Assembly: GCA_964551475.1 (NCBI GenBank)
Contig: CAZKCI010000121.1
Coordinates: forward strand, 14,308-78,307
Source of the DNA: an uncultured bacterium
GTDB taxonomy: Bacteria > Auribacterota > Erginobacteria > Erginobacterales > CAZKCI01
Direction: 5' to 3'
Length of the DNA: 64,000 nt
Positions 22,201-46,854 of this stretch are shown one piece after another; within the stretch, counting starts at the first letter, position 1; each line of letters starts with the position of its first letter. The position numbers and the translations under genes are program-made. Under the pieces are notes generated by a model that was given only the letters and a program-made list of their open reading frames with translations, was not told the DNA's origin and made no database searches.

Positions 22201-23691
22201 TCAGTATCCCCCCTGGCCGAACATGGACAACACCCGGTCTCCGTAAGCCCGCCCCGCCGTCAAAACGGCGGCGGCCCGACCGAAATAATCACCGGGACAG
22301 AGCAGCAGGAGACCGCCCAGGAGACAGATCGCAGCCAGTATGACCATGGGAATTGCCATGGAGGGCGGTGGGTCCTTCGCCCCGTCGAGTGCGGGCGGTC
22401 GTTCCCGGAAGAATGTCCCGCGGAGAAACTTCAGGTAGTAAGCGAGCGTGACCACGCTCACCGCCGCCGCCAGGAGCGCCCCGACCACATGCCCGGCGTC
22501 GACGGCGGCGAGTATGAGCAAGAGCTTGCTGAAAAATCCCGCCGTGGGAGGAATCCCCGATATGGAGAAGGCGGCAATGAGGCTGGTCGTCCCCGTGAGC
22601 GGCATCCGGGGAAATAACCCTCCGAGCTTCTTGAGGTCGCGCGTGCCGGCCGAGGCCTCGATCGCTCCGGCGTCGAGGAAGAGGAGCGACTTGGCGGCGG
22701 CATGGTTGACGAGATGGAAAAGGCCGGCCATGAGCGCCAGCGGCGTCCCGATCCCCAGGGCGAAGACGATATAGCCGACCTGGCTGATCGACGAGTAGGC
22801 GAACATCCGCTTGATATCGTCCTGCCCGATGGCGAGAAACGCCCCCACCGTCATGGAGAGGAGACCGGCATAGAGCATCAGGTCGGGAAAGGGGGCGGGG
22901 TTTCCGAAAACATTGAAAAGGATCCGGGCGAAGGAATAGATCCCCAGTGACTTGATCAGGACGCCGGAAAGAAGCGCGGAGACGGGAGCGGGGGCGGCGG
23001 GATGGGCGTCGGGAAGCCAGGAATGAAACGGGACCACGGCGGCCTTGATCCCGAAACCGGCGGTGAAGAGGGCCAGGCTGAAGAAAAGCAGGGGCGTCAT
23101 CTCCAGAGAGGAGGCGAGATGGGCCAGGCTCAGCGTGGAAGCCTGGCCGTAGAGGAGGGCGATCCCGAGAAGGATCAGGCAGGAGGCCAGCCCCCCCATC
23201 ACCAGGTATTTCAAGGAAGCCTCCAGCTCCTCCGCCTCGGTCCCGAAAGCGACCAAGGCGTAGGAGGCGATCGAGGCGATCTCCAGGAAAACGAAGAGGT
23301 TGAAAATGTCGGCAGTGATGACGACGCCGTTCAGACCGGCGATCATCAGGAGAAAGAGGGCGTAGAACTTCCAGCGGTCGGTGAAGCGGTCTACGTAGCG
23401 CACCGCGTAGACCGAACAGAGGGACGCCATCAGATTGACCGTGAGGAGGATCAGGGCGCTCAGATGGTCGAGGACCAGCCCGATCGAAAGCGGCGGGCCC
23501 CATCCCCCCACCCGCCCGACCAGGATCCCCGTCTCGGGCAGGGCGAAGGCGGCGAGCAGGGCGAGGAGGAAGAGGGAGACGGCGGCGGCGACCGAGACGG
23601 TCTCGCCCACGCGCTTGAGCTGGCGCCCCAGGATGGCGATGAGAAAGGCGCCGCCCAGCGGAATCGCCGCAAATAATGGAAGATAATTCAT
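22201..23691 (-). CDS. MrpD/NuoN-like proton-translocating antiporter subunit (MbhH-like)
   Basis: About 14 TM helices; conserved motifs of complex I antiporter-like subunits (…FHSWLPDAH…). Confidence 0.85.
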   Translation of the reverse strand: MNYLPLFAAIPLGGAFLIAILGRQLKRVGETVSVAAAVSLFLLALLAAFALPETGILVGRVGGWGPPLSIGLVLDHLSALILLTVNLMASLCSVYAVRYVDRFTDRWKFYALFLLMIAGLNGVVITADIFNLFVFLEIASIASYALVAFGTEAEELEASLKYLVMGGLASCLILLGIALLYGQASTLSLAHLASSLEMTPLLFFSLALFTAGFGIKAAVVPFHSWLPDAHPAAPAPVSALLSGVLIKSLGIYSFARILFNVFGNPAPFPDLMLYAGLLSMTVGAFLAIGQDDIKRMFAYSSISQVGYIVFALGIGTPLALMAGLFHLVNHAAAKSLLFLDAGAIEASAGTRDLKKLGGLFPRMPLTGTTSLIAAFSISGIPPTAGFFSKLLLILAAVDAGHVVGALLAAAVSVVTLAYYLKFLRGTFFRERPPALDGAKDPPPSMAIPMVILAAICLLGGLLLLCPGDYFGRAAAVLTAGRAYGDRVLSMFGQGGY

Positions 23692-23707
23692 TGTCCGTCC
23701 GTCAAGT

Positions 23708-24049
23708 TCATCCCCTGAGTTTGCGGATCTTGGTGACGTCGAATGTCCCGTATTTCTCGTAGAGCCGGATGGCCAGGGCGACCAGGAGAAGCGTGGTGGC
23801 CAGCCCGATGACGATCGAGGTGTGGGCGATGACCTGGGGGATGGGGTCGACCATCTCCCCGATCACCCGGTCCGGCGCTTCGATCGGGGCATGGCCGCCC
23901 GTCCGGTAGCCGATCAGGACCAGGAGGAGGTTGATCGCATAGGTGATGATCGAGAGGCCGATGATGATCTTGATCAGGTTGCGTTTGGTCGCCAGGCTGT
24001 AGATCCCCACGGCCATCAGGACGAAACAGAGTATGTAGACAAGATTCAT
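23708..24049 (-). CDS. MrpC/NuoK-like subunit (MbhG-like)
   Basis: Three-TM, 113 aa, NuoK/MnhC pattern. Confidence 0.75.
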   Translation of the reverse strand: MNLVYILCFVLMAVGIYSLATKRNLIKIIIGLSIITYAINLLLVLIGYRTGGHAPIEAPDRVIGEMVDPIPQVIAHTSIVIGLATTLLLVALAIRLYEKYGTFDVTKIRKLRG

Positions 24050-24094
24050 TGTGGTTATGCCTCAATCATGCCAGCAAACCGGCGGTCAGGCCGT

Positions 24095-24175
24095 CCATTG
24101 TAGGCCGGTTCTGTGAACCGGCGACCAGCCTCGCCGCCCGCTCACAGAGCGGGCCTACAGCCCGCACGACCGAGC
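24095..24175. repeat. GTAG-type REP pair (CTGTAGGCC plus hairpin, then an inverted copy) inside the hydrogenase operon; family E
   Basis: tgtaggccggttctgtgaaccggc ... gcccgctcacagagcgggcctacag; same family at 36538-36600 and 45514-45630. Confidence 0.85.
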
Positions 24176-24181
24176 TATCTC

Positions 24182-24649
24182 TCATGGCTTCTCCTGGTCG
24201 TCATGCCCGGAGCTGAAAGCGGACATGACGGTGAAAAAGATGTAGATCCCCCCCGCCACCGCGAGGGCGACGGCGATTTCGGAGAGGGGGATGGTCCCGG
24301 CGCCGAGGAGCGCGAAGCGCTGGCCCGCGGGAAGCCAGCTCTGGAAGAAGGCGCCGGCGGCGTAGCCGAAAAGAGCGATGGCAAGGAAGATCAGCGCGCC
24401 CAGGCCGATCAGCGGCAGGGCGGCTTCGGGACCGAACTTTTTCCAGACCCGCTCCCGGCCGAAGGCCAGGACGAGTTCGATCAGGGAGAGGGCGATGATC
24501 ACACCGCCGGCGAATCCGCCCCCCGGCCCGAAGTGCCCGTGGAGAGCGATGTAGACGCCGAAGAGGAGGCTCAAGCCCACGGTGAGCCGGGCGATCGTCT
24601 TCACGATCAGGCTCATCCCTTCCTCGCGGCGATCGTTCTGTCCGTTCAC
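24182..24649 (-). CDS. MnhB-domain subunit (MbhF-like)
   Basis: Four-TM hydrophobic protein with MnhB-like pattern; start may be the internal MSLIV. Confidence 0.65.
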   Translation of the reverse strand: MNGQNDRREEGMSLIVKTIARLTVGLSLLFGVYIALHGHFGPGGGFAGGVIIALSLIELVLAFGRERVWKKFGPEAALPLIGLGALIFLAIALFGYAAGAFFQSWLPAGQRFALLGAGTIPLSEIAVALAVAGGIYIFFTVMSAFSSGHDDQEKP

Positions 24650-29171: not shown

Positions 29172-29605
29172 CGTTTCTTCTCCAGCTTCCCCCTCACCAC
29201 TCCCAGCGCCTTCACCAACCCCGCGATCATCGCCTCCGGCTTGGGCGGGCATCCCGGGATGAAGACGTCCACCGGCAGAACCTGGTCCACCGGCAGGGGG
29301 GCGGTGTAGCAGCCCTTGAACATCCCCTGGTCCATGGCGCAGGCGCCGAAGGCCACCACCGCGCAGGGCTTGGCCATCGACTCGTAGACCTGGCGGACCC
29401 GGGGCGTGGCCTTGAGCGTCATCACACCCGTCACCAGAAGAACATCGGCATGGCGGGGGGATCCCACCAGGAGCACTCCGAAGCGCTCGGCGTCGAAGCG
29501 GGGGGTGAGCAGGTCCAGGATCTCGATGTCGCAGTTGTTGCAGGAACCGGTCGAGAGGTGGAAGACCCAGGGCGATTTCAACAACGCTTTATGGACGAGT
29601 TTCAT
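29168..29605 (-). CDS. [NiFe] hydrogenase small subunit, NuoB/HycG/MbhJ family
   Basis: Cys ligands for the proximal [4Fe-4S] cluster (GSCNNC ... GACAMD ... GCPP); start chosen at MKLVHKAL. Confidence 0.85.
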   Translation of the reverse strand: MKLVHKALLKSPWVFHLSTGSCNNCDIEILDLLTPRFDAERFGVLLVGSPRHADVLLVTGVMTLKATPRVRQVYESMAKPCAVVAFGACAMDQGMFKGCYTAPLPVDQVLPVDVFIPGCPPKPEAMIAGLVKALGVVRGKLEKKR

Positions 29606-31140: not shown

Positions 31141-31973
31141 TAGTGCCATATCCCCTCGATATCCTTGATCTTGTCGTAGGGCAGGACGGGGCCGTCTTGG
31201 CAGACGAAATAGGGCCCCAGGCGGCAGTGGCCGCACTTGCCGATCCCGCAGGACATGTTCTTTTCCATGGATAGATACAGGGAAGCCTGAGGAAGTTTCA
31301 GCTCCGCGATCAGCTTGAAGGTGACGAACTTCATCATCACCGGAGGGCCGCAGACCACCGCCACCGAGCGGGCGATGTCGATATCGAGATTGTCGAGCGT
31401 GGTGGTCACCAGCCCCACCTTCCCGCCCCAGGCCATCCCCTCCGGAACCTTGTCCACGGTTACCCGGAGCTCTATGTTCTTGTGCAGGCGGGGCCAGGAC
31501 TCCATGATCAGGCGCTTGTAGATCATGTCCTCCGGGCTCCTCGCCCCGGCGCAGAGGACGATCCTCGGGTAGGCCTCGATGCCGTGGACCAGGGCCAGGA
31601 AGAGCGCCCGCAGGGGGGCGAGTCCCACCCCTCCCCCGACGAGCACGATCTCCTTCCCCGCGAAGGCGGAGAGAGGGTACTCCTTCCCGAAGGGGCCCCG
31701 CAGACCCACCACCGCCCCTTTCTCGATCCGGTGAAGAGTCTCGGTCACCTTCCCCGCCTTCATGATCGTCACCTCGATCGTCTCCTTCTGAAAGGGAGAG
31801 GAAGAGGGGGTGAAGGGGGCCTCCCCCAGACCGGGTATGGCGAGCTCCACGAACTGACCGGCCCGGAAAGCGAAGGGGGACGACGGCTTCAGGACGAAGG
31901 TCTTGATCGTCGGAGACTCGGTGATGATCTCCGTGATCGTGGCCGGAATCGATTGATAAGGATTTGTCGTCAT
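31140..31973 (-). CDS. FAD/NAD(P)-binding oxidoreductase with C-terminal [2Fe-2S] site, sulfhydrogenase gamma (HydG)/AsrB/PyrK-like
   Basis: Ferredoxin-NADP-reductase-like fold motifs (GQFVEL, LVGGGVGLAPL) and C-terminal CGIGKCGHC cluster. Confidence 0.8.
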   Translation of the reverse strand: MTTNPYQSIPATITEIITESPTIKTFVLKPSSPFAFRAGQFVELAIPGLGEAPFTPSSSPFQKETIEVTIMKAGKVTETLHRIEKGAVVGLRGPFGKEYPLSAFAGKEIVLVGGGVGLAPLRALFLALVHGIEAYPRIVLCAGARSPEDMIYKRLIMESWPRLHKNIELRVTVDKVPEGMAWGGKVGLVTTTLDNLDIDIARSVAVVCGPPVMMKFVTFKLIAELKLPQASLYLSMEKNMSCGIGKCGHCRLGPYFVCQDGPVLPYDKIKDIEGIWH

Positions 31974-31995
31974 AGGACGCCCGGAATGCTTGACC

Positions 31996-33018
31996 TTATT
32001 CCGACTCTATCCTCTTCAGAATCTTGCGAATGTCAATTTTTCCCATGCACGCCTCCACGCAGCGGCCGCATCCCGTGCAGGCCAGGGCGCCGATCAGGTC
32101 GGGGAAAAACTGGAACTTCTTGGAGAAACGGTTGCTGAGCCGCTCGGAGCGGCGGGTGCGCGGGTTGGATCCGCCCGCCTCCCGGGAGAAGCCGGGATAC
32201 TGGCAGGAGTCCCAGTTGCGGAGTCGGACGGAGCCTTCCCGGGCGGGAGACTCCTCCAGAATGAAGCAGTGGCAGGCGGGGCAGACCAGGTTGCAAGCCC
32301 CGCATTCGACGCAGGGGACCGCTTCCTCCTTCCAGAGCGGATCGCGGCTCTTCTCCTTCACCCGAGCCGCCGCAGGCGCCTTGTCCAGCTGGCCCTGTTT
32401 CTTCAGCAGGTCTTTCAGATCGCCGAGAACCTTCTCCCTCAGTTTCGTCCGGGAGGAGATCTCCTCCTCCTTCGCCCCGCGGAAACGGGAAGCGGAGTCC
32501 CGGATGATCGCCTCTCCCTTCTCGCTCCCCGTCTCCACCAGGCAGCCTCCGGGCAGAGGCGTCAGGTTGAGGTCGAAACCCCGCAAGGGATGGGGCCGGC
32601 CGCCGACCACCGGGCAGAAGCAGACCTCCTTGAAGCCGGCGCAGTCCTGGCTCACCAGCAGAGTCTCTTCCCTCGCCTGTCGATAGAAAGGATCGGCGCA
32701 GTTCCCCTGCAAAAAGATGTAATCGAGAACCGGGAGGGCGGCGAGATCGCAGGCCTTGAGGCCGACGAGCGCCCGGGGACGGGATGCGGGCGCGACCGTT
32801 CCGGGGAAACGCGCCACCGTCTCGCGGCCGGAAAAAAGGAAGCTTTTCAGCGATTCGATCGCCCGGTAGGGCGACGGCTCGGCCTTCCCTTCCCCGGACA
32901 GGGGGGAAAACGTCCAATCCCCGTCCAGGCGGCGGGGGATGAGGAGATCCCGGGCGCAGGCGAGATCGGACAGCCAGCGCGGGAACTCCGCGTCAGAGAT
33001 GAAATGGAGAGCGCTCAT
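31996..33018 (-). CDS. Iron-sulfur protein, sulfhydrogenase beta (HydB)/AsrA-like
   Basis: Cys clusters CVECGACNLVCPACHC and CTGCGRCVEAC; pairs with the HydG-like gene. Confidence 0.75.
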   Translation of the reverse strand: MSALHFISDAEFPRWLSDLACARDLLIPRRLDGDWTFSPLSGEGKAEPSPYRAIESLKSFLFSGRETVARFPGTVAPASRPRALVGLKACDLAALPVLDYIFLQGNCADPFYRQAREETLLVSQDCAGFKEVCFCPVVGGRPHPLRGFDLNLTPLPGGCLVETGSEKGEAIIRDSASRFRGAKEEEISSRTKLREKVLGDLKDLLKKQGQLDKAPAAARVKEKSRDPLWKEEAVPCVECGACNLVCPACHCFILEESPAREGSVRLRNWDSCQYPGFSREAGGSNPRTRRSERLSNRFSKKFQFFPDLIGALACTGCGRCVEACMGKIDIRKILKRIESE

Positions 33019-35847: not shown

Positions 35848-36435
35848 CTACTTCTCAGCCGGGGGCGCGGCCGGTCCCTCGGCCGGGCCGCCCATCCCGC
35901 CGCCCATCATCGGACAGCCTTCTTTACCGGGACCGGACGGTCCGCGGCCTTCTTTCTCGCCGCCCGTCCGCTCGCCGCCCTTCCTGGTCCATTCCCTTCC
36001 GCCGCGGCCTCTCTCGCCCCGCTCGCCTCTCGCCCGATTGATCATGCGGGAGACCTTCTCCCACTGCTGGGGGTTGAGTATCTTGCGGACCTCGACCAGG
36101 CGCTGGAGCCCCTGCTCCGTCTGCTTCATGCGGGCGTCAACGATCTCCTTGATGAATTTGGAGATCTCCTCGTCGCTCGTCTTCCCTGCCTTGATCAGGC
36201 GATCGAAGTTGAGCTGGGCGATTTTCGCCTTGGCCTGGAGATCGATGGCGCTCTGGGCATACTTGAAGTCGATCTCCGCGAGCTGGGCGATCTGCTCGGG
36301 AGTGAGGGCCAGATCCTCGACCGCTTTTTTCCTCTCCCAGAATTTCGGCCAGCGGCCGGTCGGTTCGGCCTGGGCCGCCGCTACGACGGTCGTCGCGACC
36401 GCCACGATCACCGCCATCCACAGCCATTTCTTCAT
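35848..36435 (-). CDS. Periplasmic Spy/CpxP-family (LTxxQ motif) protein with Gly/Arg/Glu-rich C-terminal tail
   Basis: Signal peptide; LTPEQIAQL and LNPQQWEKV LTxxQ-like motifs; start chosen at MKKWLW. Confidence 0.6.
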   Translation of the reverse strand: MKKWLWMAVIVAVATTVVAAAQAEPTGRWPKFWERKKAVEDLALTPEQIAQLAEIDFKYAQSAIDLQAKAKIAQLNFDRLIKAGKTSDEEISKFIKEIVDARMKQTEQGLQRLVEVRKILNPQQWEKVSRMINRARGERGERGRGGREWTRKGGERTGGEKEGRGPSGPGKEGCPMMGGGMGGPAEGPAAPPAEK

Positions 36436-36537
36436 CGTGTCACCTCCCCGGGGTTGGTTTCGAGCCCGGCGTATTCGGTTTACTTTCACTTATTAAACTG
36501 GAATACTCGCGGAAGGTTTAACCGATCATGCCTCAGC

Positions 36538-36600
36538 GATGTAGGCCCGCTCTGTGAGCGGGCGTTTCGCCGCCGCCTCACAGAGGCGGCCTACACATAG
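36538..36600. repeat. GTAG-type REP pair (family E)
   Basis: tgtaggcccgctctgtgagcgggcg ... cgccgcctcacagaggcggcctaca. Confidence 0.85.
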
Positions 36601-36612
36601 GTTTTATCGATC

Positions 36613-37563
36613 ATGGGGGCGAGAAGACAGCATTCTTATCCGGACCTCCTGCGCGTCGTCTATCGGACCTTCGACTCCCGTCAGATCGCGATCACGGGAC
36701 TGGGGCTTTTCTTCGCCCTCCTCTCCGCCTACGCTTTCTCCACCCTGGCTTATTTCGCTCAGGGCTCCCTCACCTTCCTCCCCTGGTTCCTGAACCTCCT
36801 GGGGGCGATCTCCTTTTATCTCGTCCTGATCGTCTTCTCCGGCCCCGTCACCTACCTCGCCCTCCAGGAAAACACGGGGGGCGGCGGCGGATTGGGCTCC
36901 GCCCTCCGGCTGGGCATCCGCTACGGCCCCCGCCTCCTGCGCGCCCCCTTGAGCGTCCTCTCCTCCCTCCTCCTCTGCCTGATCCTGCTCGCGGTCCTGA
37001 TCTCGCTCGGCCTGCTTCCCCGGGCCGGGACCGTGATCTGGTCGCTCCTGATCGTCCCCCAGTTCCTCATCTCCCTCTTCATCGTGATCGGCGTCCTCAC
37101 GCTGCTGGCGGGAACGCTCCTCCTCCCCTCCATCATCATCGACCGGGAGATCCCCGCCCGGCGGGCTTTTCAGGAGCTCACCGCCCTGATCAAAGGCCGC
37201 TTCTTCACCTTCTGGGGATACATCTTCACCATCCTTTTCCTCACCGCAGCCTACTTCGCGGTTGCCACCATCGTTCTGATCGGCGCTCTCTCGGTTTTCT
37301 TCGCCCTCTCCGCCTCCATCTTGGGAGACATGCCGGGAAAGGTGATCATGAACATCCCCCCCTTCTTCCACAAGGTGGCGCCCATCCTGGAGACCGCCCT
37401 GCCCATGCCCTCGTCTCTCCCCCCCGCCTCTCCCCTCCTCTCCTTGAGCGGGGCGATCGCGGGTTTCTCCCTCCTCATCATCTACGTCATCTGGCTCTCC
37501 TATCCCGTCCTCTACGCCATAAACTCCGGCGTGGTGGCCTACCTGGCTTTGACCCGGGATTGA
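36613..37563 (+). CDS. Hypothetical integral membrane protein (about 7 TM helices)
   Basis: Hydrophobic ORF with GGGGG-containing loop; no family assignment. Confidence 0.5.
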   Translation: MGARRQHSYPDLLRVVYRTFDSRQIAITGLGLFFALLSAYAFSTLAYFAQGSLTFLPWFLNLLGAISFYLVLIVFSGPVTYLALQENTGGGGGLGSALRLGIRYGPRLLRAPLSVLSSLLLCLILLAVLISLGLLPRAGTVIWSLLIVPQFLISLFIVIGVLTLLAGTLLLPSIIIDREIPARRAFQELTALIKGRFFTFWGYIFTILFLTAAYFAVATIVLIGALSVFFALSASILGDMPGKVIMNIPPFFHKVAPILETALPMPSSLPPASPLLSLSGAIAGFSLLIIYVIWLSYPVLYAINSGVVAYLALTRD

Positions 37564-38275
37564 CACAACCCCTTCGGGGTTGATGGCGGCATCGGCTCCC
37601 CCAACCCGGGGTAGCGCCTCCGGCGCAACCCCGGGCTATGCGATGGAATCCCGTTGGGATTCGGCCTCCGGCGACAATGCCAAAAGATCTGGATTGGGAA
37701 TCGATGCCGGAAAACGCTGTTCGACGACGGCTGGTCCCAACAAAATCATCTTCGATCACCCAGACGTCTTGCCCCTGTGAACGCCACTTTGAAAGTTATC
37801 TTCTTCACCCGGTTTGAAATCTCCCTTTCGGGCCGGCGGTCACATGCCCCAACGGGGCAACGTCCCCTAGCCCAGGGTTGCGCCGGAGGCGCTACCCTGG
37901 GTAAACGACACGCATCGCCAGGCCAACCCCAACGGGGTTGTGTCCCCTAGCCCAGGGTTGCGCCGGAGGCGCTACCCTGGGTAAACGGCGCGCAACGACA
38001 GGCCAACCCCAACGGGGTTGCATCCCCTAGCCCAGGGTTGCGCCGGAGGCGCTACCCTGGGTAAACGACACGCAGCGCCAGGCCAACCCCGACGGGGTTG
38101 CGTCCCCTAGCCCAGGGTTGCGCCGGAGGCGCTACCCTGGGTAAACGGCGCGCAACGACAGGCCAACCCCAACGGGGTTGTGTCCCCTAGCCCAGGGTTG
38201 CGCCGGAGGCGCTACCCTGGGTAAACGACACGCAACGACAACCAACCCCAACGGGGTTGCATCAAAGGAGAACGG
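37560..38275. repeat. REP array upstream of the RAYT: one inverted-orientation unit (37560-37690), a diverged spacer, then five tandem 80-bp structured units
   Basis: Unit cccctagcccagggttgcgccggaggcgctaccctgggtaaacgacacgcaacgacaggccaaccccaacggggttgcgt; contains nested hairpins and a GTAG (as CTAC) tetranucleotide. Confidence 0.9.
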
Positions 38276-38277
38276 CT

Positions 38278-38733
38278 ATGCCACAATCGTTGTCATGCGT
38301 CTACGTCCACCTGGTATTTTCGACGAAAAATCGGGTCCCTTTCATTCGGGAGATGGCGCTACGCGCGGAATTGCAGGCCTATCTGGGCGGGATTTCCAAG
38401 ACATTGGAATGCCCGCCAACCATTGTCGGCGGAACGGATGATCACGTACACATGTTGTGTCGTTTGGGGCGGACGATCGCGCAGGCGAATTGGGTCAAGG
38501 AGGTCAAGCGCGTGTCCAGCGCCTGGATCAAGCAACACGATCCGACGCTGGCGGATTTTGCCTGGCAGACCGGATATGGCGCGTTTTCGGTAAGCGTGTC
38601 AAATCTGGAAAAGGTCCAGGCATATATCTCCAACCAGGAAGAACATCATCGTCAACAATCCTTTCAGGACGAATACCGTGCGTTTCTGAAAAAACACGGC
38701 TTGGAATGCGATGAACGGTATATGTGGGATTGA
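38278..38733 (+). CDS. REP-associated tyrosine transposase (RAYT; IS200/IS605-like Y1 HUH transposase TnpA-REP)
   Basis: HUH motif DDHVHMLCRL, catalytic Tyr in AWQTGYGAFSVS, about 150 aa, flanked on both sides by REP arrays; AAAGGAGA RBS 6 nt before ATG 38278. Confidence 0.85.
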   Translation: MPQSLSCVYVHLVFSTKNRVPFIREMALRAELQAYLGGISKTLECPPTIVGGTDDHVHMLCRLGRTIAQANWVKEVKRVSSAWIKQHDPTLADFAWQTGYGAFSVSVSNLEKVQAYISNQEEHHRQQSFQDEYRAFLKKHGLECDERYMWD

Positions 38734-38739
38734 TAGGTG

Positions 38740-39430
38740 TTGACACAACCCCTTCGGGGTTGACGGGGATATTGCTCTCGTATACCCGGGGTAGCGCCTT
38801 CGGCGCAACCCCGGGCTACATGACAGAATCCCTTTGGGATTCGTCCCCCGCAATTGCCCAAAAGGGGCAATGTCCCCTGGCCAAGCATTGCGCCAAAATC
38901 GTCCGATGGAATCCTATTGGGTATTCGGCTCCTGCAACAACGCTGGGATGCCGAGTACGGAAACCTCACCTGCAACACCATCCCAAACAATATTGTGAGG
39001 CATTCGTTAACCCCAACGGGGTTGCGTCTCCTAGCCCAGGGTTGCGCCGAAGGCGCTACCCTGGGTAAACGACACGCAACGACAGGCCAACCCCAACAGG
39101 GTTGCGTCTCCTAGCCCAGGGTTGCGCCGGAGGCGCTACCCTGGGTAAACGGCGCGCAACGACAGGCCAACCCCAACGGGGTTGCGTCTCCTAGCCCAGG
39201 GTTGCGCCGAAGGCGCTACCCTGGGTTAACGACACGCAACGACAGGCCAACCCCAACGGGGTTGCGTCCCCTAGCCCAGGGTTGCGCCGAAGGCGCTACC
39301 CTGGGTAAACGGCGCGCAACGACAGGCCAACCCCAACGGGGTTGCGTCCCCTAGCCCAGGGTTGCGCCGAAGGCGCTACCCTGGGTTAACGACACGCAAC
39401 GACAGGCCAACCCCAACGGGGTTGCGTCCC
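38740..39430. repeat. REP array downstream of the RAYT: inverted-orientation unit (38740-38870), a diverged spacer, then five tandem 80-bp units
   Basis: Same unit as the upstream array; 38740-38870 and 37560-37690 share ttgacacaaccccttcggggttga...cccggggtagcgcc. Confidence 0.9.
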
Positions 39431-39431
39431 T

Positions 39432-40529
39432 CTATCCCGTGATCGGGGCGGGGACAAAGGAGAGGAGGAGGATCAGAAAGACCAGCCAGCCGAGGAGCCT
39501 CCGGCGGGGATCGAGGGGGGTGACGTCGTCGAGCGGCGGGGGATGGCGGATCCCCATGAGCAGGATCACCAACACCCAGACCAGCCAGCCCTCCCAGAAG
39601 ACGATCCCGAGGAGAACGAGGATCGCGATGAAAATCCGGGCGATCAGGGGATGTTTTGCGCCGAAGAGGGCGTAGGCGATATGGCCCCCGTCGAGCTGGC
39701 CGATGGGGAAGAGGTTGATCGCGGTGACCATGAGTCCCACCCAGCCGGCGAAGGAGACCGCGCCGATCATGATGTCCTGGCCGGGGGCGAGGTGGGGGAA
39801 GCGCAGGCCGAAGATGAACTTGGTGAGGAGCGAATCGCCGAAGTAGATCGCCGCCGGTCCCGGAGGGATTTCGGCGAGCTTGAGCTCGGAAAGGCCGACG
39901 AAGAGTGCGGCGGCGGAGAGGACGAAGGAGGCGATCGGCCCGGCGATCCCCACGTCGAAGAGGCTCTTCCGGTTCGGGAAAGGGGAGCGGCTGACGATCA
40001 GGGCGCCCATCGTCCCGAAGAGGTTCGGGAAGGGGATGAAATAGGGAAGGGACGACTTCACGCCGTGGCGCAGCGAGACGAGGTAGTGGGAGAACTCGTG
40101 GCAGAGAAGTATGGAGAGGAGAGTGAGGGAGAAGGGCCAGCCCCGCAGAAGCAGGAGGGGGCGGGCCATCAGCTCCTGGGCGCCGATCTCCTGGAAGGCG
40201 ACGCCGACGAAGAGCGTGCTGACGACCGTGGCGAGAAACAGGAGGAGATGGACGAGGGGACGGCCGGGTTTCCGTTCCGTCCGCGCGGGGGCGAACTTGA
40301 GCGCCGTCCCCCGTTTGTCCCGCGCCAGGAAGACCAGCAGGCCGAAGGGCGCTGTCTTCTCGCGGATGATCCGGAAGGCCTGATCGGAGGGGAGCCTGAG
40401 CGCGCCCCGAAAGACGAGAAAGGGGCCCTCGTAACCCCGGTCGGATATCTCCATCACCCCGGCGACGAGGTCGGGAAGTTCCCACTGGATATCGTACGAG
40501 GGAGAGTTTATTGCGTCTTGCTCGCTCAT
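39432..40529 (-). CDS. Site-2 protease family (M50) membrane metalloprotease
   Basis: HEFSHY (HExxH) in a TM helix, downstream LDGGH motif. Confidence 0.85.
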   Translation of the reverse strand: MSEQDAINSPSYDIQWELPDLVAGVMEISDRGYEGPFLVFRGALRLPSDQAFRIIREKTAPFGLLVFLARDKRGTALKFAPARTERKPGRPLVHLLLFLATVVSTLFVGVAFQEIGAQELMARPLLLLRGWPFSLTLLSILLCHEFSHYLVSLRHGVKSSLPYFIPFPNLFGTMGALIVSRSPFPNRKSLFDVGIAGPIASFVLSAAALFVGLSELKLAEIPPGPAAIYFGDSLLTKFIFGLRFPHLAPGQDIMIGAVSFAGWVGLMVTAINLFPIGQLDGGHIAYALFGAKHPLIARIFIAILVLLGIVFWEGWLVWVLVILLMGIRHPPPLDDVTPLDPRRRLLGWLVFLILLLSFVPAPITG

Positions 40530-44353: not shown

Positions 44354-44651
44354 AGGTTAGGAAGTGGGTCTGGGGGATAGGTCAGGGTCAGGTTAGGCCA
44401 GACGGGCTACACTATTAACCTTACCCATTTACCAGACCATCATCCTTACCCTGACCCATCGACCCCGATGGCAAATGGGTAAGGGTCAGGAAGTGGGCCT
44501 GGGGGATGGGTCAGGGTCAGGTGGGGCCAGACGGGCTACACTATTAACCTTACCCATTTACCAGACCATCATCCTTACCCTGACCCATCGACCCCGATGG
44601 TACATGGGTAAGGGTCAGGAAGTGGGTCTGGGGGATGGGTCAGGTCGATGG
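44341..44651. repeat. About 129-bp structured tandem repeat, 2.4 copies, spanning the DUF2284 stop codon to the nfo stop codon
   Basis: Copies start at 44341, 44469 and 44599; each unit holds internal inverted segments (aaatgggtaagggtcagg... versus ...ccttaccctgacccat). Confidence 0.9.
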
Positions 44652-45494
44652 TGCGTCTCGGAATGATTTAAGGAGGGCGAGATTTCTCGGATCGTCCTCC
44701 GGCGTCTGCTTCGGCGTCTCGATGATGAAGGTCTTCTCCCGCAGGGCTTCGTGGCGGGCGATCCTCCGCATCCCGTCGAGACCGATCTTCCCCTCTCCGA
44801 TGTGCTCGTGGCGGTCGCTGTGGGAGTCGAAGCCGTACTTCGAGTCGTTGAAGTGGACGAGGAGGAGGCGGTCGAGGCCGAAGAAACGGTCGATCTCCTC
44901 GAGCGTCCGGTCGAGCCCCGCGGCGGTGGAGACGTCGTATCCGGAGACGAAGGCGTGGCAGGTGTCCAGGCAGAGGTGGAGGCGCTCGGAGACGCCGGAG
45001 CGGTCCATGATCTCGGCGATAAACTCGAAGCGGTGGCCGAGGCTCGACCCCGCGCTGGCGGTGTTTTCCAGGAGAACCTTCACGCCCGTATCGCCGACAC
45101 GGCGCAGGGCCTCGCCCAGGGCACCCGCCATCCGCTCGATACCGGCCGGAAAGCCGTTCCCACGGTGATAGCCGACGTGGGTGACGAACATCTCCGCCCC
45201 CAGAGAGCGGGCCCGCCCGAGATCGGTCTCGAAAAGATCCAGGGATTTGCGAAAGATCTCCTCGTCCGGGGAGGCGAGGTTGATCAGGTAGGGGGTGTGG
45301 ACGATGACCGGCCGGAGAGAGTGCTCCGCGCAGAGGGCGCGGAAGCGGCTCCCCTCGTCGGGGGCGAGGACCTTGACCTTCCAGCCCCGGGGATTGCCGC
45401 TGAAGATCTGGACCGCTTCGCAGCCGACCTCCAGCGCCCGGTCCACCGCCTTCTCCACCCCGCCGGTGATCGATATGTGGGCGCCGACTCTCAC
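44640..45494 (-). CDS. nfo: Endonuclease IV (deoxyribonuclease IV, AP endonuclease)
   Basis: Xylose-isomerase-like TIM barrel with HTPYLINLASP and metal-binding H/E/D residues. Confidence 0.9.
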   Translation of the reverse strand: MRVGAHISITGGVEKAVDRALEVGCEAVQIFSGNPRGWKVKVLAPDEGSRFRALCAEHSLRPVIVHTPYLINLASPDEEIFRKSLDLFETDLGRARSLGAEMFVTHVGYHRGNGFPAGIERMAGALGEALRRVGDTGVKVLLENTASAGSSLGHRFEFIAEIMDRSGVSERLHLCLDTCHAFVSGYDVSTAAGLDRTLEEIDRFFGLDRLLLVHFNDSKYGFDSHSDRHEHIGEGKIGLDGMRRIARHEALREKTFIIETPKQTPEDDPRNLALLKSFRDAPST

Positions 45495-45513
45495 GGCAAG
45501 ATAATTCCGCGGG

Positions 45514-45630
45514 CTGTAGGCCCGTTCTGCGAACGGGCGGCCGGGCTCGAACGCCGGTTCACAGAACCGGCCTACAGTCTCTGACGAAGCGTCCGCCCGC
45601 GGTCGGTAGGCCCGCTCTGCGAGCGGGCGT
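45514..45630. repeat. Three GTAG-type REP units in alternating orientation (family E) between nfo and the aminotransferase gene
   Basis: ctgtaggcccgttctgcgaacgggcgg / gccggttcacagaaccggcctacag / ggtaggcccgctctgcgagcgggcg. Confidence 0.85.
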
Positions 45631-45654
45631 GTGCGGGCCTTGGCTGCCGCTTAT

Positions 45655-46854
45655 TTACGATTTCAGCCGGGCGCAGAAATCGGCGATCTTCCGGTAGGCC
45701 TTTTCCAGGACGTCTTCGGGAGGGAGGAAGACCACCCGGAAATGCTTCGTCCCTTTCGCCTGGCCAAAGCCCGTCCCGGGAACGGTGACCACGCCGCACT
45801 CCTCGATCAGCCTCCGGACAAACTCATCGTCGGAGATGGGAAGATCGAGACGCGGATAGGCGTAAAAAGCGCCCTCGGGCTTGACGCAGGATATGCCGGG
45901 GATGGCGTTGAGCATCTCCACGGTGAGGTTGCGGCGGCGGGAAAGCTTGGCGTTGGTCTTTTCGAGGTGGCTCTGGTCCCCCTCCAGGGCGGGCTTGATC
46001 GCCCACTGCTCGGGATGGTTGGCGCAGAGGCGGGCGCGCAGAAGCTTGTTCACACCCTCGATGTAATCCTGGAGGACCTTCTCGTCTCCGCTGATCACCG
46101 CCCAGCCCACCCGGAAACCGGGGGCGAGATAGTTCTTGGAGAGGCCGGAGAGGGTGACCACGGGGACGCCGCCGTCGAGGGCGGCCGGGGAGACGTATTT
46201 CCCCCCGTCCAGGATCAGGCGGTCGTAGATCTCGTCGGAGAAGATGACCAGGTTGTGCTTCAAGGCCAGGCGCACGATCCCCCGGACCGTCTCCTCGTCG
46301 CAGAGCGCCCCGGTGGGGTTGTTCGGGTTGATCAGGACGATCCCCCGGGTCTTCCGGTCGATCTTCTTCTCGATGTCCTCGAGGGACGGCTGCCAGCGGT
46401 TTCCCTCGTCCAGGACGTAGTCCCGGGGCTCCACCTCGAACTTGTTCAGGATGGCGGAGTAGGTGGGGTAGCCCGGGGAGGGGATGAGCAGGTTCTCCCC
46501 CCGGTCGGCCAGGGCGGCGAAACAGATGTCGATCGCCTCGGTGGCGCCGGTGGTGACGAAGACGTCGCGGATGGTCTTGATCCCCTTCTTCTTCGCCTCC
46601 CGGGCGATCGCCTCCCGGGCCTCGGGCACGCCCGAGGAGGGCGCATAGCCGTTCTGGTTCTCCCTCAAGGCCCGGCAGGTGGCCTCGATGATGTGGGCGG
46701 GGGTGCGGAAGTCGAAGAGGTTGGGGTCGCCGATGTTCAGGTAGAGCATCTCCCTCCCCTGCCGGGCGACCTTCTCCGCCAGAACCACGATGTCCCGGAT
46801 GGCGTAGGTCACACGGGAGGTCCTAAAAGCGGGCTGGATGGCGCGGGTTTTCAT
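45655..46854 (-). CDS. Pyridoxal-phosphate-dependent aminotransferase, class I (alanine/aspartate aminotransferase-like)
   Basis: PLP-lysine motif SGLSKNYLAPGFRVGW; fold-type I pattern. Confidence 0.85.
   Translation of the reverse strand: MKTRAIQPAFRTSRVTYAIRDIVVLAEKVARQGREMLYLNIGDPNLFDFRTPAHIIEATCRALRENQNGYAPSSGVPEAREAIAREAKKKGIKTIRDVFVTTGATEAIDICFAALADRGENLLIPSPGYPTYSAILNKFEVEPRDYVLDEGNRWQPSLEDIEKKIDRKTRGIVLINPNNPTGALCDEETVRGIVRLALKHNLVIFSDEIYDRLILDGGKYVSPAALDGGVPVVTLSGLSKNYLAPGFRVGWAVISGDEKVLQDYIEGVNKLLRARLCANHPEQWAIKPALEGDQSHLEKTNAKLSRRRNLTVEMLNAIPGISCVKPEGAFYAYPRLDLPISDDEFVRRLIEECGVVTVPGTGFGQAKGTKHFRVVFLPPEDVLEKAYRKIADFCARLKS

Follow-up and report, generated by a model that had tools for sequence, protein, structure and literature searches.

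A GTAG-tagged REP family and its probable cognate tyrosine transposase in an uncultured Auribacterota bacterium

The window considered here is a stretch of 64,000 nucleotides (C121:14308-78307) from a 3.44 Mb assembly of 144 contigs with a G+C content of 62.8%. Seven short hairpin units, each tagged with the tetranucleotide GTAG, lie at three of its loci, and the window also holds a gene for a Y1 transposase (Table 1). By definition, REPs are palindromes of 20-50 nt that follow a conserved tetranucleotide, usually GTAG; a REP and an inverted REP often form a BIME, and a single-copy tnpAREP gene together with its REPs is referred to as a REPtron (PMC8266576). A degenerate pattern of the unit matched the window seven times, compared with 0.01 matches expected from dinucleotide-preserving shuffles. 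An nhmmer profile built from all copies in the genome returned the same seven units and no degenerate extras. A preliminary description of this DNA had reported a GTAG REP family at three loci, arranged as BIME-like inverted pairs or triplets, and both statements are borne out: all seven units were found where it placed them, as two doublets and one triplet. A degenerate third unit to the left of locus 1 (~24077-24098), hinted at by BLAST matches to the sister genome G001, was considered as well and set aside for want of support from the nhmmer profile.

Locus 1 occupies a 132-nt gap between an MnhB-like gene (24182-24649, minus strand) and a NuoK/MrpC-like gene (23708-24049, minus strand). 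The surrounding genes, likewise on the minus strand, form a group 4 [NiFe] hydrogenase cluster of the Mrp/Mbh type, whose products include Mrp antiporter-like subunits and the large subunit of the hydrogenase (Complex1_49kDa plus NiFeSe_Hases). The earlier placement of one locus inside the hydrogenase operon is therefore correct. The two units form a heterodimer, with the unit at 24135..24159 being the inverted partner of the unit at 24099. Locus 2 is found between divergent genes, a Metal_resist-domain gene (35848-36489, minus strand) and a gene at 36613-37563 (plus strand). Here, the unit at 36571 is inverted with respect to the unit at 36540, and an 8-nt linker separates the cores. This doublet is bracketed by a 17-nt direct repeat that duplicates the stretch from ribosome site to ATG of the downstream gene (score of 12, reached by shuffled flank pairs at a frequency of 5e-4). 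Locus 3 is a triplet between an aminotransferase gene (45655-46854, minus strand) and an AP_endonuc_2 TIM-barrel gene (44640-45494, minus strand). Its middle and third units face each other with their GTAG tags inward across a 30-nt linker, and in the third unit (45605..45629) a G instead of a T precedes GTAG.

Table 1. Repeat units, associated repeats and Y1-type transposase genes. Positions are those of the window unless a contig or piece is named.
Feature	Position	Strand	Core	Score	Remarks
REP unit, G-type, locus 1	24099..24123	+	24100-24122	nhmmer 30.8 bits	Stem GCCGGTTC, loop TGT, then G
Linker centre, locus 1	24124..24134	.			GTAG-outward doublet; 13 nt between the 23-nt cores
REP unit, C-type, locus 1	24135..24159	-	24136-24158	nhmmer 26.6 bits	Stem GCCCGCTC, loop TGT
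17-nt direct repeat, left copy	36514..36530	+			Brackets the locus-2 doublet; 14/17 identical
REP unit, C-type, locus 2	36540..36564	+	36541-36563	nhmmer 27.3 bits	Stem GCCCGCTC
REP unit, G-type, locus 2	36571..36595	-	36572-36594	nhmmer 21.7 bits	Stem GCCGCCTC
17-nt direct repeat, right copy	36599..36615	+			Ends in the ATG (36613) of gene 36613-37563
IS200/IS605-type Y1 transposase gene	38278..38733	+			Own 80-bp tandem arrays at 37840-38260 and 39000-39400
REP unit, C-type, locus 3, first of triplet	45515..45539	+	45516-45538	nhmmer 29.1 bits	Stem GCCCGTTC, loop TGC
REP unit, G-type, locus 3, middle of triplet	45552..45576	-	45553-45575	nhmmer 31.0 bits	Stem GCCGGTTC, loop TGT
REP unit, C-type, locus 3, third of triplet	45605..45629	+	45606-45628	nhmmer 22.8 bits	Stem GCCCGCTC, loop TGC
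REP-associated tyrosine transposase (RAYT) gene	C99:6779-7264			NF047646 101.6 bits, cut-off 80	162 aa
RAYT gene on C8	C8			NF047646 128.6 bits	169 aa; HUH and YxNP motifs, E. coli-type; flanked by GTGG-tagged REPs
RAYT-like gene on C3	L003 1435-2466 (G000:C3, ~45270-46300)			NF047646 72.3 bits, below the cut-off of 80	343 aa

The consensus of the unit, taken from a position table of the genome copies, is T-GTAG-GCC[G/C][G/c]NTC-TGY-GAN[C/g][C/G]GGC-G. Two positions that took no part in the selection of copies, the T before GTAG (97%) and the G after the stem (99%), are near-invariant, and the conserved unit is consequently counted as 25 nt: T, GTAG, a perfect 8-bp stem with a 3-nt TGY loop, and G. 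The loop was likewise outside the selection, and its first base is T in 99% and its second base G in 95% of the copies. As single-stranded DNA, one unit folds with -9.2 kcal/mol (z = -5.0). The preliminary description had given the hairpin a 7-bp stem; the hairpin stands, and the stem is more aptly read as 8 bp with a 3-nt loop, or as 7 bp with a loop of 5 nt. For an inverted doublet two folds are possible, a pair of separate hairpins and a single long hairpin that is internally mismatched.

Conservation of the structure is seen in the genome at large. A search of the genome for xTAGG ahead of a hairpin that has a 3-nt loop and an 8-bp stem, with no more than one mismatch, gave 194 matches, of which 191 carry GTAG and 187 the family stem GCC-NNNN-C. 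Pairing is kept by compensatory changes in at least 10 stem variants. For a covariation test that avoids circularity, units were picked on their 5' half and loop alone (n = 219). All four variable stem positions were complementary in 182 of these units, compared with 34 after the 3' halves had been shuffled among units.

A census of the genome gave 187 strict units in 104 clusters, or about 200 to 220 copies with degenerate ones included, and thereby disposes of the possibility, raised at the outset, that the family exists at only these three loci. The nhmmer scores are bimodal in distribution, with ~200 copies at 12 bits or more. Inverted doublets are the commonest kind of cluster (49 of the 104), followed by single units (44); clusters of three (6), four (2), five (2) and nine units (1) make up the rest. 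Adjacent units are inverted relative to each other in 79 of 83 pairs. In 73 of these 79 inverted pairs (92%, against an expected 49%; binomial p = 1.6e-16), a G-type unit, whose stem starts with GCCG, is joined to a C-type unit, whose stem starts with GCCC, and either type can be the upstream member of a doublet. Linkers are short where the GTAG tags point outward, with modes of 8-9 and 15 nt, and measure ~29 nt where the tags point inward. Their length follows the stem subtype, such that GGTT and CG[A/C]T units are mostly joined by a semi-conserved linker of 15 nt, GCTT and CGCT units by 9 nt, and GCCT and CGCT units by 8 nt. The largest array (G000:C38:20678-21060) is a tandemly amplified BIME with a period of ~90 bp, in which nine units alternate strictly and are separated by near-identical 15-nt and 29-nt linkers.

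Gene calls from a crude, home-made codon-usage caller, which make 79% of the genome coding, leave roughly four-fifths of the units (151/187, ~81%) outside genes, the 29 "coding" units being taken as called. Most units are located downstream of genes and between convergent genes, and gaps of the latter kind hold 23% of the clusters although they constitute 11% of all gaps. The GTAG tag, the copy number, the extragenic placement, the compensatory stem changes and the alternating inverted units together identify this family as GTAG-tagged REPs organized into BIMEs. In the 50-nt flanks of the 104 clusters, the best direct repeat had a mean score of 5.79, the same as in shuffled flanks (5.79), and the repeat at locus 2 is the only one that stands out. 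This lack of a general flanking direct repeat agrees with transposition of the HUH type, in which the target is not duplicated. All 104 clusters are more than 300 nt away from the nearest contig end, so that the REPs are no visible cause of the fragmentation of the assembly, and there is no sign of a gross undercount in the census.

Four genes of the genome match Y1_Tnp, namely that of the window and one each on contigs C99, C8 and C3. The preliminary description had paired the GTAG REPs with the window gene, which it took to be a RAYT, and had accordingly seen in the window a REP system complete with its enzyme. This gene does encode a genuine Y1/HUH transposase (PF01797, E = 4e-22), is present in a single copy in the genome, and lies 1.7 kb from the locus-2 doublet, its nearest GTAG REP. 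In the NCBIfam collection, however, it passes only the IS200/IS605 model NF033573, and that at threshold (55.9 bits vs a cut-off of 55), while the RAYT model is not matched. Its best solved relative is ISHp608 TnpA rather than TnpAREP, and its flanks consist on both sides of a different, 80-bp unit, without any GTAG REP. The sister genome G001 has 139 to 168 GTAG REPs, including lineage-specific insertions, yet a homolog of the window gene was not found in its 92% complete assembly. At the syntenic site (window 37547-39436, corresponding to the reverse-oriented stretch 31689-32241 of G001:C2), G001 has ~2.5 copies of the 80-bp unit and no Y1 gene. It is thus highly improbable that the window transposase mobilizes the GTAG REPs and that the window holds both enzyme and substrates. 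That model is already largely refuted, and the window transposase and the GTAG hairpins belong to different systems.

The RAYT gene on C99 is a better match to the REP family, both for its score against the RAYT model (101.6 bits vs the required 80) and for the REPs that bracket it. Three GTAG REPs lie upstream and five downstream of this gene, all within 330 bp; given the density of clusters in the genome, the chance of finding a cluster within 250 bp on both of its sides is ~6e-5. The REPs immediately beside the gene are both in minus orientation, and a simple inverted bracket is seen in three of four metagenome homologs. The best solved relative of the C99 protein, and its only one, is TnpAREP of E. 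coli (PDB 4ER8; E = 6.8e-8). In the alignment of the two, the HUH motif (HIH) is kept and Y134 matches the Y115 residue. There is one gene of the C99 clade per genome, and the next-best matches are 33% and 28% identical.

Relatives of the C99 protein number in the thousands in a large protein collection, where many bear the JGI name "REP element-mobilizing transposase RayT". The closest, at 53-60% identity, come from metagenomes and from MAGs labelled as Verrucomicrobiia and Kiritimatiellia. Four such homologs (53-60% identical; on JGI, ENA and NCBI contigs, one being an NCBI Kiritimatiellota MAG) are flanked by REPs on both sides. In all four contigs, the flanking REPs consist of TGTAGGCC, a perfect 8-bp stem with a 3-nt loop, and GGCG, and stem variants alternate. 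REP-flanked homologs in four unrelated metagenome contigs show that the pairing of enzyme and REP is conserved well beyond the genus.

The C8 RAYT might be put forward instead as the enzyme that mobilizes the GTAG REPs, whether by itself or jointly with the C99 enzyme. Against the RAYT model it scores even higher than the C99 protein, and it is an E. coli-type enzyme with both HUH and YxNP motifs. Nevertheless, it is bracketed on both sides by a second REP family, which is tagged with GTGG and present in 161 genomic copies; no GTAG REP on its contig comes closer than 31 kb; and the C8 and C99 enzymes share only 33% identity. A role of this kind for the C8 RAYT is accordingly very unlikely, although either the C8 RAYT or the window enzyme could in principle act on GTAG REPs in trans. 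The core of the GTGG family is GTGGGAG[C/G]GGCGTCTCGCC[G/C]CGATCC, with a compensatory C/G dimorphism. Its tags occur in the window at ~25280 (-), 27362 (+), 48778 (-), 53099 (+) and 53195 (+), two of these copies being inside the hydrogenase gene cluster, and further copies are found at L002 1300-1365 and 1960-2140. The remaining match to Y1_Tnp, the C3 protein, combines an N-terminal RAYT-like Y1 domain with a long C-terminal extension, and there are no REPs of either family within 4.6 kb of its gene.

Each RAYT gene thus has a repeat of its own on both sides, and that of the C99 gene is the GTAG family. The GTAG units are thus very probably a single REP family of non-autonomous mobile DNA whose cognate enzyme is the single-copy C99 RAYT, with the qualification that both genomes are fragmented metagenome assemblies (144 and ~160 contigs) from which additional RAYT genes or REPs may be missing.

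The distribution of the family across the phylum follows that of the C99 gene. A strict REP pattern has 167 matches in this genome, 139 in G001, the only other species of the genus, and none in 39 further relatives. With a looser 25-nt pattern, there are 178 matches here and 168 in G001, and the other 77 genomes of the phylum have 0 or 1, which is the level obtained with the control pattern. G001 is also the only phylum genome with a close ortholog of C99 (73% identity; the next best is 38%), and REPs flank that gene as well, four to one side of it and a single unit to the other. The REP family is therefore confined to two of 79 phylum genomes, both of which have a C99 ortholog, though this co-occurrence counts as a single evolutionary event given that the two are close kin.

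While both species possess the family, they share few of its sites. Over ~55 kb of synteny at ~83% DNA identity, this genome has its three clusters and G001 has three others, none of which are in common. Locus 1 is empty in G001, where there is no spacer at all and the two genes overlap by GTGA. The locus-2 doublet is exactly absent, and the 17-nt stretch that is repeated around it here is single there. The triplet of locus 3 is likewise absent, its place being taken by a 41-nt spacer. Conversely, G001 has a REP and another palindrome in the hydrogenase cluster at the equivalent of window 29182/29187, where the genes of the present genome overlap by ATGA. A precise deletion that recreates an overlapping start and stop is unlikely, and the locus 1 and 29182/29187 sites consequently indicate REP gains in both lineages. 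By this comparison, the three window loci are lineage-specific insertions, of which locus 1 splits a junction between formerly overlapping genes of the hydrogenase operon.

Other features were noted at these orthologous sites. At 29182/29187, the G001 insertion is likewise flanked by a duplicated junction (ribosome-site/ATGA), a weaker duplication than that of locus 2. In such cases a REP may have inserted into a gene start and persisted only by virtue of the duplicated junction. At G001:C2:111244-111284, orthologous to window 45494-45672, G001 has a perfect and unrelated 15-bp palindrome whose loop measures 2 nt. This palindrome is possibly an older hairpin that the REPs displaced or replaced. 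Between its nuoK/mrpC-like and mrpD-like genes, G001 also has ~219 extra bases (G001:C2:130941-131159, orthologous to window 23684-23721) that include no GTAG REP; the corresponding nuoK/mrpC-mrpD spacer of the present genome is 16 nt long.

A wider comparison, covering 0.80 Mb of G001, gave the same picture. Of 22 clusters of this genome that could be mapped, three are occupied in G001, and of 11 mappable G001 clusters the same three are occupied here; in total, 3 of 30 sites are occupied in both species, and with two genomes only, gain and loss are inseparable at most of them. Two of the three shared sites have a single unit in one species and a doublet in the other. With respect to the doublet (REPIN) as a unit, doublets predominate, their 15-nt linker is semi-conserved, and the two species differ by entire doublets; yet 44 clusters are singletons, and one G001 insertion is that of a singleton.

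Every feature found here has precedent among known REP systems. The closest parallel in form is REPtron Sm of Stenotrophomonas maltophilia, whose (SMAG) REP is 23 nt long, with GTAG, a perfect 8-bp palindrome and a 3-nt loop (PMC8266576). Like this group 3-type system, the present family has a 23-nt core with a 5' GTAG, a perfect 8-bp stem and a 3-nt loop. It is similarly high in copy number and intergenic, with conserved loop positions and a single-copy RAYT gene flanked by its own REPs. In contrast, the two systems are unlike in the sequences of stem and loop, and the present one belongs to an uncultured bacterium of the PVC group. The likeness to group 3 TnpAREP (Bertels 2017; subclass 2.5 of Quentin 2018) is one of the short perfect REP palindrome and of that alone.

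In sequence, the enterobacterial REPs offer a second parallel. These start with GTAGGCCcG or GTAGGCCgG and end with cGGC or gGGC (Table 1 of Nunvar et al., PMC2817692), and the foot GTAGGCC[G/C]G...C[C/G]GGC is common to the present family and to the REPs/BIMEs of E. coli (y/z), Citrobacter and Klebsiella. As in enterobacterial BIMEs, there are two variants that differ at the first variable stem position, and inverted units alternate with linkers of two length classes. Enterobacterial REPs are 30-40 nt long and have a bulge that is required for activity, in contrast to the short perfect stem seen here. The preliminary statement that the layout is exactly enterobacterial thus holds for the 5' foot (GTAGGCC[c/g]G, PMC2817692), whereas the layout itself fits the short, perfect-palindrome type.

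A broader frame is provided by the GTAG REP superfamily of Di Nocera et al. (2013), which comprises 24 families from eight phyla, including Verrucomicrobia and Planctomycetes (PMC3733652). Its members prefer gaps between unidirectional and convergent genes, subfamilies with complementary stem changes and heterodimers occur, and REPtrons are repeat-specific where several families coexist (PMC3733652). The present family has the same GTAG tag, a stem within the range of 6-9 bp, a loop within that of 2-3 nt, a predominance of dimers with GTAG outside, and heterodimers of a kind known there. It also shares the complementary stem subfamilies, the preference for unidirectional or convergent gaps and the repeat-specific REPtrons, these 24 families being compared by description rather than by consensus and the host phylum lying outside their survey (PMC3733652).

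Finally, a comparison can be made with the REPINs of Pseudomonas fluorescens, to the extent that Bertels and Rainey (2011) are cited in PMC3733652. By that account, the commonness of inverted doublets (49/104) is REPIN-like, as is the presence or absence of whole doublets or triplets between species. The alternation of singleton and doublet at two of the three shared sites also fits, as if singletons were remnants. Unlike the REPINs so described, a doublet here nearly always joins two different halves, one G-type and one C-type, and its long hairpin consequently contains internal mismatches.

An alternative reading is that the hairpins are mainly host regulatory elements, held at their sites by selection, and not mobile DNA. 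Roles as mRNA stabilizers, attenuators, terminators or sites for nucleoid proteins or gyrase have been documented for the REPs/BIMEs of E. coli (reviewed in PMC8266576), most units lie downstream of genes and between convergent genes, and locus 1 falls within an operon transcript. Against such a reading is the finding that only 3 of 30 sites are conserved between species at ~83% DNA identity. Nor is there an orientation bias of the GTAG strand relative to transcription, which it follows in 12 singletons and opposes in 14. The three window loci have no T-run or terminator-like site of the kind that marks an intrinsic (Rho-independent) terminator, and window positions 23500-46000 gave no Rfam match at the gathering threshold. 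The restriction of the GTAG family to genomes with the cognate RAYT also speaks against a regulatory nature. A mainly regulatory nature is therefore improbable. No dedicated host function of the GTAG REPs is evident; effects on mRNA, such as hairpins in transcripts or loss of translational coupling, would be secondary, if any, and secondary co-option at individual sites is possible.

How the C99 enzyme would mobilize its REPs can be outlined by analogy with the enzymes of E. coli, Stenotrophomonas and Marinomonas. The enzyme would bind the folded hairpin on single-stranded DNA, would use the 5' GTAG for recognition and guidance, and would then cut at a nearby CT-type dinucleotide and rejoin the strands. 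Such cutting and rejoining could spread REP doublets into intergenic spacers. The preliminary description had RAYTs cleave at GTAG, which is imprecise: the dinucleotide cut by characterized RAYTs is CT (or CA) and lies on the 5' or the 3' side of the hairpin, and GTAG serves in recognition and in the selection of the cut site (PMC8266576). A CT lies directly 5' of GTAG in only 29% of the present units, and the sequence therefore does not reveal where the cut is made.

As to origin, a tentative scenario, which we consider possible and somewhat doubtful, is that the REPtron, consisting of the RAYT and a TGTAGGCC REP with an 8-bp hairpin, was gained horizontally by the ancestor of one Auribacterota genus from a PVC-wide clade. 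Its REPs would then have colonized more than 100 spacers independently in each species, translationally coupled junctions among them, with the near-obligate pairing of GCCG and GCCC stems (92%) being a mechanistic necessity and not a matter of chance. The source clade would be one in which enzyme and REP foot are matched down to a protein identity of 53%. If this scenario is true, the GCCG/GCCC pairing mirrors the y/z dimorphism of enterobacterial BIMEs at the same stem position, and the need for it could lie in a requirement for two different substrates or in keeping a long, perfect cruciform from forming.

General knowledge of REPs is unchanged by the GTAG family. What it adds to the known catalogue is a clean, small REPtron from a little-studied candidate phylum, and one that comes with natural controls. 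The genome contains two further systems of Y1 enzyme plus repeat, in each of which the enzyme has a repeat of its own at its flanks; a sister species without the window enzyme keeps the GTAG REP family; and lineage-specific insertions are matched by exact empty sites. These attributes make the family a convenient case for the study of RAYT specificity and for dating the gain and loss of REPs.
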